Made by a program: the position numbers and the translations under genes. From a virus (lineage: Duplodnaviria > Heunggongvirae > Uroviricota > Caudoviricetes): a DNA stretch of 59,499 nucleotides. A model generated the notes under the pieces. The model had not been told where the DNA came from. It made no database searches and saw only the letters and a list, made by a program, of their open reading frames with translations. Shown here one piece after another: positions 15,478 through 17,556 of this stretch (positions are counted from its first letter, which is position 1; the number at the start of each line of letters is the position of its first letter). Where the stretch lies: IMG/VR virus record IMGVR_UViG_2874945390_000008. One strand, 5' to 3'.

Positions 15478-17556
15478 TTACCCCGGTATTTGTTGCATTC
15501 CGGCGAGTTGTGCCAGTATGTCGGAACCTGGTTTTTGTTGAACGTCGAGCCTGATTACCTGAGAAGTATTATTTGGTGAATATACGTTTCCCCCGTTCAT
15601 TGCCAGCGCCCGCATCACATCATCGCCACTTACTGCACGAGCAGCGTCCCCATTTTCATGGTTAATAATGCCCTGAATTAGCTTTCTCATTATCTCAAAA
15701 TTAGAACCATCGATTTTCTCCTTAACACCTAATCCGGTGTACTGAGAGAGATAGCTTTTATAGGACGATGTGTTATTTCCATCAGATGAAGGGGCATAAA
15801 TATCAATAATCTGATCAATCGTATTTTTGCCGCGTTTCAGGTATAGCATTACCTGCCGATCTAAGGCAGCAATGCCTTCCAGCATCGTCGGGAAGCTGGC
15901 AAAACGGGCATTTGGCCCCGATTCCAAGGTAGCCCCTTTTTGTCCTGCGAAATTAAGATTTCCGGGATTGTTATTCCTGATCCCTCTGGATAAATATGCA
16001 GATCTGTTTACTTGATTTGAAAATCCCTGCAATCCTCCAGGCCAGACCTTACCCGGATTGTTTTTTTGCCACTCCTGCACTTCGTTAAAATAATCAAAGT
16101 TGAAACGCCCCTCCAGCCCTTTCATTTCCTCACTGGTGGTAGGTGTGTCATTTGTAGGAATAGCCAATCCAGCTACTGTTCCGGCTGTAGCCCCAAGAAG
16201 ACTTCCACCAACAACACGGGCGGCAACTCCGGTCGTTGTGGCTGCCACAGCACCAACTCTCGATGGTCCAGCAAGTACTGCGGCCCCAAAAAGCCAGGGA
16301 TGTTCAACCGCAAAACCAACAAACCCGCTAAGTGCCTTAACAACCTTTGCAACATTTTCGGCAAAATTATTCAGGTCGTTATTAAAATCCGGGCCATTTA
16401 CATACTTACCAAGTTTATCCAGACCTGTTTCAACATCAGTCAAAATTCTTTTAAAGTTCTCACCGTTAAGGAAATTTAGACCAGCATTCTTTACACCATT
16501 AGATATTCTAATTAGCTGTACAGAGTTACCCGACATTGCCCCCTGAAATCCGCTGGTAAGTTGATCCCAGTTATTTTCTAAGTTGCTGGTAAGATTCTGA
16601 TACTGGCTTGTATGTCCAGAGGTGAGCAACGAGTCATTCTGAGAAGCTCGCGATAAAAACTCTTTGTTGAGTTCAGGTATTTTGTCCTGATATTTGACTA
16701 ACTGGTTAGCAATACCAAAATTTACCCATCCAAGGCCACGACCTCTGAGCATGCTCTGAGTAAGTCCGGTTCACTCATACTCCTTTGCAAGAGCAGCAAC
16801 TCTTTCTAACAATACAGGAAGATTTTCTGCTGCCCCTTTTTTAGGATTTATCCCTAATCCAATTAGCCCGTTGTAGGCAGGATGCTGAGTGTCATTTTGC
16901 GCGGCTGCCAGTGTATTGAGCAAATTACCAACACCGGAAAAATAAGGCGAATAAGTGCTTTCTGCCGCCTTTAACTCTCCTGGAGTTGCCTGCAATTCAT
17001 CAGCATTTTTCTGTTTCTCTACAACATTACGAGCCATCATGCCAAAGCCAAACGGCCCGGCAACGCCCATAACCGCAAGTTTTGTCCCCCACGATACGGT
17101 GGTTTTAAACAGGTTGTTTAATCTCGAAGTGGTCGTCCGTAGCGTAGAATTGATCTGCTTGTAAGTTTTCAGCGTCTGTTTGGCGTTTTTCCCCAGCCCG
17201 CTGAGGTACTTATCAAACATCGTTTCGCCGCGACCTTTATAGTTGCTCACCAGCGAATCAGGTGTTTTCCCGCTGCCAACAAAGCGCCATTTTTCATCCC
17301 TTAAACGTCCATCAGTGGAAGCAGCCAGAACTGGCGCGGGTGAAGATGGTTTCCTAGGAGCCTGATTGGCTTCTCCGCCTGTGGTTGTCTGCCAAGAGCC
17401 ACCTCCCGGACCGGTATTTGAAGGTATTTTAAGCGGCGTACCGGCAGGGCCAATCATCAGTCCGTTGCGATACTTTTCAAATATCGCCTCAAGCCGCCTG
17501 AGGTGTTCTTCATTAACATCCAGCGTCAGAACTGGCATCTGGTTACCAGCCATCAC
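15478..17556 (-). pseudogene. Tail tape measure protein interrupted by an in-frame TGA
   Basis: ORFs 16771..17556 and 15478..16752 are in the same frame, separated only by TGA (rc of 16771..16773) and 6 sense codons; Gly/Ala-rich and Asn-rich segments typical of tape measure proteins. Confidence 0.55.

Follow-up and report, generated by a model that had tools for sequence, protein, structure and literature searches.

The two adjacent open reading frames (ORFs) at positions 15,478 to 17,556 of the window, which is the whole 59,499-nucleotide stretch analysed here, are very probably the remains of one gene. Our reading, held with high confidence, is that of a pseudogene produced by a single G-to-T nonsense mutation in a Rac-like contractile-tailed prophage (Rac-SA53 type) of Shigella boydii. 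The pseudogene is located at 15478..17553 on the minus strand and corresponds to a 691-codon gene for a tail tape-measure / tail-associated muralytic protein (PHROG 7694), with 99.5–99.8% identity to WP_151039316.1 and WP_023568479.1.

The N-terminal fragment begins with a GTG at position 17556 and ends with a TGA at 16773..16771 on the minus strand, for a total of 261 codons. It is 260 codons in length when counted from the ATG at 17553 (16774..17553), which is where the annotations of its homologues start. The premature TGA (16771..16773, minus strand) is followed by six sense codons, ACC GGA CTT ACT CAG AGC, and then by a second ORF in the same frame. This C-terminal fragment (15478..16752, minus strand) extends 424 codons from the ATG at 16752 to a TAA at 15480..15478, and contains a hydrophobic Gly/Ala-rich segment and an endolysin-like muralytic domain that matches PDB 7q47_A. 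Read in one frame, positions 17556..15478 contain exactly one internal stop.

An initial sequence-only reading had placed ORFs of 261 and 424 codons in one frame, separated by a TGA and six sense codons, and had proposed that together they would make a protein of about 690 amino acids. Translation confirms this layout and the single-frame gene, with the small correction that the restored protein is 691 amino acids in length (260+1+6+424) and that its N-terminal piece has 260 codons from the ATG at 17553. Chance does not account for the shared frame: the whole 2,076-nucleotide stretch aligns without gaps, at 99.3–99.8% identity, to single 691-codon E. coli genes.

Seven homologues were read directly, five from E. 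coli prophages and two from sequenced phages, and each is one uninterrupted gene. The copies in E. coli RM11911, GmM062, 214-4, C7, and STEC005 are each a single CDS of 2,076 nucleotides (691 codons) with GGA at codon 261; the STEC005 copy is 92% identical to the window stretch. The phage homologues are also single CDSs, with GGA at codon 261 in vB_Apl-pPE4 and GGT in Rac-SA53. The 2,079-nucleotide stretch of the window has matches in 92 of 5,426 complete E. coli genomes, 22 of them at 99% identity or higher over the full length. An 81-nucleotide query centred on the TGA has no 100% match in the same 5,426 genomes.

Given the GGA in the relatives and the lack of an exact 81-nucleotide match, the lesion is, on this comparison, a change from GGA (Gly261) to TGA by a coding-strand G-to-T transversion at position 16773 (C-to-A on the plus strand). 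Alignment to intact homologues was the check suggested in the sequence-only reading, and the ancestral codon that it returns is GGA (Gly), or GGT in the case of Rac-SA53.

The vB_Apl-pPE4 record (PP818812.1, L003) was deposited as a phage of Actinobacillus pleuropneumoniae. It is collinear with the E. coli/Shigella Rac-like prophage, and within the tape-measure gene 1.5 kb of its DNA is 89% identical to that prophage. The host given in this record seems doubtful.

The gene lies in a tail module with the minus-strand order sheath, tube-sized gene, 205-amino-acid gene, tape-measure gene, three small genes, hub homologue, and baseplate proteins. The sheath (20024..18687) was identified with PHROG 205 and the baseplate hub homologue (14543..13536) with PHROG 196; the tube-sized gene is at 18675..18232. 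The 205-amino-acid gene (17618..18235, minus strand; PHROG 11810) is directly upstream of the tape-measure gene and, from gene order, is a candidate tail assembly chaperone.

This candidate chaperone gene contains a slippery heptamer, T_TTT_TTT, at 17855..17849, exactly where the −1 frame opens (open from 17861). The −1-frame extension (17553..17861, minus strand) includes a 97-amino-acid ORF that starts with the ATG at 17846, aligns with PHROG 14324 over its whole length, and stops at a TGA (17555..17553) overlapping the tape-measure ATG. A chaperone arrangement with −1 frameshifting is conserved just upstream of tape-measure genes, and by analogy with this G/GT-type arrangement we infer that the chaperone pair would be made by −1 frameshifting. 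The RefSeq annotations of the relatives include the 205-amino-acid gene only, without the −1 ORF.

The intact E. coli orthologue aligns with PHROG 7694 in one stretch, residues 1–691 on profile positions 1–675 (E=0). The two ORFs of the window match profile positions 1–261 and 269–675 separately. Because they cover the profile only as separate pieces, the window copy is, at the level of sequence, a broken member of PHROG 7694 and a pseudogene. Residues 520–637 of the intact protein match PDB 7q47_A, labeled 'Endolysin' (E=6e-11), and 9vvp_L (E=2e-11), and the muralytic families PHROG 873 and 7182 also match the intact protein.

The Pfam SLT model has no match in the intact protein. Both fragments, the intact orthologue, and the neighbours were also scanned against Pfam and NCBIfam; neither has a usable family for the tape-measure gene, and the N-terminal 500 residues are covered by no family model. 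PHROG 2276, named 'tail length tape measure protein', matches residues 513–640 only, which is the muralytic domain. A single-sequence AlphaFold2 model of the 424-amino-acid piece has a mean pLDDT of 33.6 and is unusable. In the databases, the protein is named either 'lytic transglycosylase domain-containing protein' or 'hypothetical protein'.

The best reading of the gene is a tape measure with a predicted C-terminal muralytic domain, because of its place in the gene order, the chaperone arrangement, and the endolysin-type and muralytic matches. The gene sits downstream of a chaperone pair with the −1 layout, in which frameshifting would be expected, and upstream of the hub. The tape-measure label given in the sequence-only reading thus agrees with the gene order and the chaperone frameshift arrangement, but no full-length family model corresponds to it.

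A second, independent stop exists in another lineage. The sequence-only reading had named homologous phages split at the same point as the observation that would count against a nonsense mutation; the only other split allele found breaks at codon 243. In E. coli CE516-type prophages, GAA at this codon has become TAA, also by a G-to-T change, 18 codons upstream of the window TGA. This stop is located at L013:5926-5928, is also present in L015, and corresponds to about 16827..16825 of the window. It leaves ORFs of 242 and 424 amino acids. The collection has 38 blocks with the CE516-type allele; reading covered 24 contigs, and three places are listed. An extra break in this allele in L014 (172 + 71 amino acids) was rejected as a mutation and is a run of N in a metagenome scaffold.

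The two nonsense mutations (TGA at 261 and the CE516-type TAA at 243) fall within 18 of the 691 codons and leave the same 424-codon ORF. This pattern would fit a functional split or exaptation, in which the stop is tolerated or favoured, translation from the internal ATG yields the 424-amino-acid piece, and this piece is retained because it serves the host or the prophage. Such a split is improbable. The clustering has a chance probability of about 5% and was noticed post hoc, and none of the seven directly read homologues is split. The ATG of Met268 is not conserved, and the corresponding codon is AAT (Asn) in pPE4 and ATT (Ile) in Rac-SA53. There is no AGGAGG-like Shine-Dalgarno sequence before the ATG at 16752. 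The substitutions of the window lineage are near-neutral across the module, and include a nonsynonymous change in the C-terminal piece.

A related and slightly less probable reading is that the N-terminal third is a recurrent target of inactivation and that the 424-codon ORF is re-initiated and retained, for example for a cell-wall-active or domesticated prophage function. The closeness of the codon-243 stop to codon 261 is best taken as a curiosity, mildly unexpected, and not as evidence of function.

Programmed recoding is a still weaker alternative to the nonsense mutation, and a very improbable one. In this case the full-length protein would arise through insertion of selenocysteine at the TGA or through programmed read-through. 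The frame is kept across the stop, and among stop codons UGA is the leakiest in enterobacteria. The stop, however, is not conserved, with GGA (GGT in Rac-SA53) in every relative examined. The 81 nucleotides around and after the TGA were folded in search of a SECIS-like or read-through element; none was found, and shuffled sequences fold as well as the downstream RNA (z = 0.01). The UGA thus has neither the conservation nor the downstream structure of selenocysteine or programmed UGA recoding, and the surrounding prophage is broken elsewhere too.

A sequencing or assembly error, with GGA as the true codon and the gene intact, would fit a one-base difference from relatives that are 99.8% identical, but it has a probability as slight as that of recoding, since the exact 260-amino-acid product is present on 14 contigs and some of the carrier contigs bear additional, different lesions and so are not copies of one record.

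The count of 14 contigs for the exact 260-amino-acid product was obtained by contig look-up; the public protein collection counts 13 for this product and 12 for the exact 424-amino-acid product. Among the matches listed for the 260-amino-acid product (7 of 14) are the complete chromosome CP026836.1 and six separate short-read assemblies. CP026836.1 is a 5.1-Mb NCBI chromosome, cited as Shigella boydii (PMC12817139), that matches the window at 100% identity along 20.8 kb. Each of the six related short-read contigs has the TGA as well. These contigs can be counted as independent witnesses because other lesions set them apart from the window. Read support at 16771..16773, the second check suggested in the sequence-only reading, is thus available in indirect form only, through the same 260-amino-acid product in CP026836.1 and the six short-read assemblies. 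Cluster member P0010 (260 amino acids) looked like another example of the truncation but was rejected, because the protein is incomplete, cut by the end of its contig, and has Gly at the position.

Comparison of these sister contigs gives the order of the lesions. Only the window and L008 have the Q183 stop in a baseplate protein gene (described below) and one substitution in the chaperone. This stop is absent from L007, L009, and L010, and is therefore later than the TGA. L009, L010, and L012 have a 117-bp deletion (window 18672..18788) between AATCC(C)AATGAT direct repeats. The deletion fuses the 3' end of the sheath gene to the start of the tube gene, for a sheath of 417 amino acids versus 445. 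Because the TGA is common to all six sister contigs and the Q183 stop and the deletion are confined to sub-lineages, the tape-measure TGA is, by its distribution in these sequences, an early lesion that was inherited within the lineage, and decay continued later.

The Rac-like prophage of E. coli GmM062, which is intact and contains integrase, xis, recE/recT, kilR, and trkG-type cargo, served as the reference for locating other lesions in the prophage. An IS110-family insertion of 1,450 nucleotides (24727..26176, plus strand; DEDD_Tnp_IS110, Transposase_20) splits a DUF2213 head-module gene into halves at 24012..24726 and 26177..26783. An IS1 element (10096..10860, plus strand; DDE_Tnp_IS1) lies between the baseplate J gene and an HSDR_N (type I restriction endonuclease-like) gene. 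Collinearity with GmM062 is broken at this site with an 11-nucleotide overlap, and the boundaries are uncertain by the length of the target-site duplication. All six short-read contigs end at the positions of these two elements, so they probably share both insertions.

Two further nonsense codons were identified by comparison with GmM062, both on the minus strand and both from CAG to TAG. One is Q61 of the baseplate J family gene (9885..9887). The other is Q183 of a baseplate protein gene (12988..12990), which shortens the product from 237 to 182 amino acids.

At least five other IS copies are present beyond the IS1 and IS110-family elements (896..1861, 36809..37627, 46564..47787, 49384..50415, and 55610..56752). 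The 59 kb thus contain at least seven, namely three IS3-family copies and one IS1, together with IS110-family, IS4-like (DDE_Tnp_1), and IS630-like (DDE_3) elements.

Substitutions were polarised with three relatives. Those specific to the window lineage, counted over 12.7 kb, are 9 synonymous, 16 nonsynonymous, and 2 nonsense; under neutrality, the expected proportions for these genes are 0.23 / 0.73 / 0.04 (synonymous / nonsynonymous / nonsense). Between the intact relatives there are 66 synonymous, 17 nonsynonymous, and 0 nonsense substitutions (Fisher p = 2e-5 versus the window lineage). This near-neutral pattern therefore points to relaxed selection on the structural genes of the window lineage.

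The sequence-only reading had described the TGA, in the simplest terms, as a nonsense mutation in a decaying prophage. Both parts are borne out: the mutation by the intact homologues and the independent carriers, and the decay by the pair of IS elements that entered the morphogenesis module, the two additional nonsense codons, the other IS copies (at least five), and the near-neutral substitutions.

Two further genes were observed in the window. Between the terminase and lysis genes of the prophage is a gene for a TrkH-family potassium transporter (31688..33163, minus strand). It recalls trkG of the K-12 Rac prophage; GmM062 has ParB/GREB1-like genes at this place. An ipaH-type type III secretion effector gene (2229..3944, plus strand), with LRR_TTSS and NEL E3 ligase domains, is in the left flank of the window and adjoins the tail-fibre end of the prophage. 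Its best match is to ipaH3-annotated genes of EIEC-like E. coli, in keeping with an origin in Shigella.

With the TGA read as a nonsense mutation, translation would stop after residue 260. Re-initiation would at most supply a small amount of the 424-amino-acid piece, or read-through of the UGA a small amount of the full-length protein. Re-initiation would be slight because the ATG at 16752, 18 nucleotides downstream, is the ordinary internal Met268 without a good ribosome-binding site. A tape measure can template the tail only as an unbroken chain, and from this established biology the split should abolish normal tail assembly. No virions would be expected, because the tape measure is split and the head and baseplate genes are not intact either.

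The two ORFs should be annotated as one tail tape-measure / tail-lysin pseudogene rather than as two proteins, and the prophage recorded as defective. Stepwise prophage decay in Shigella has a clean and datable example in this locus, where the tape-measure stop came first. The lesions of the sub-lineages (the baseplate stop and the sheath/tube deletion) could serve as lineage markers.

The closest counterparts of the gene are the intact orthologues WP_023568479.1 (GmM062), WP_151039316.1 (RM11911), and WP_000918397.1 (214-4). They have the same length and the same neighbours, with gapless nucleotide identity of 99.3–99.8%, and differ from the window in having GGA at codon 261 and one 691-amino-acid protein where the window has TGA.

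More distant counterparts are present in Escherichia phage Rac-SA53 (KU052037; 'lytic transglycosylase' ALP46865.1) and 'Actinobacillus phage' vB_Apl-pPE4 (PP818812; XBA92468.1), which have a collinear contractile-tail module. The order in both is sheath, tube, chaperone, and tape-measure homologue as a single CDS, followed by the hub and baseplate genes. Protein identity is 57–71%. Unlike the window, both are complete phage genomes and not degraded prophages. A literature search on Rac-SA53 returned nothing on its tape-measure homologue.

Tape measures with a muralytic domain are a known class, with mycobacteriophage TM4 Tmp and T5 Pb2 as examples. The window gene resembles this class in its position between the baseplate hub and the chaperone pair that it directly follows, which has a −1 overlapping ORF, and in its C-terminal endolysin-like domain, which is predicted from sequence.

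Pseudogenisation and IS expansion are established in Shigella genomes, and a nonsense pseudogene in a degraded prophage is a kind of event that is already well known. The window has the same features, with IS1, IS3-, IS110-, IS4-, and IS630-type elements and nonsense mutations near an ipaH-type gene. The locus is a typical example of prophage decay in Shigella, and nothing in it differs from the known pattern.
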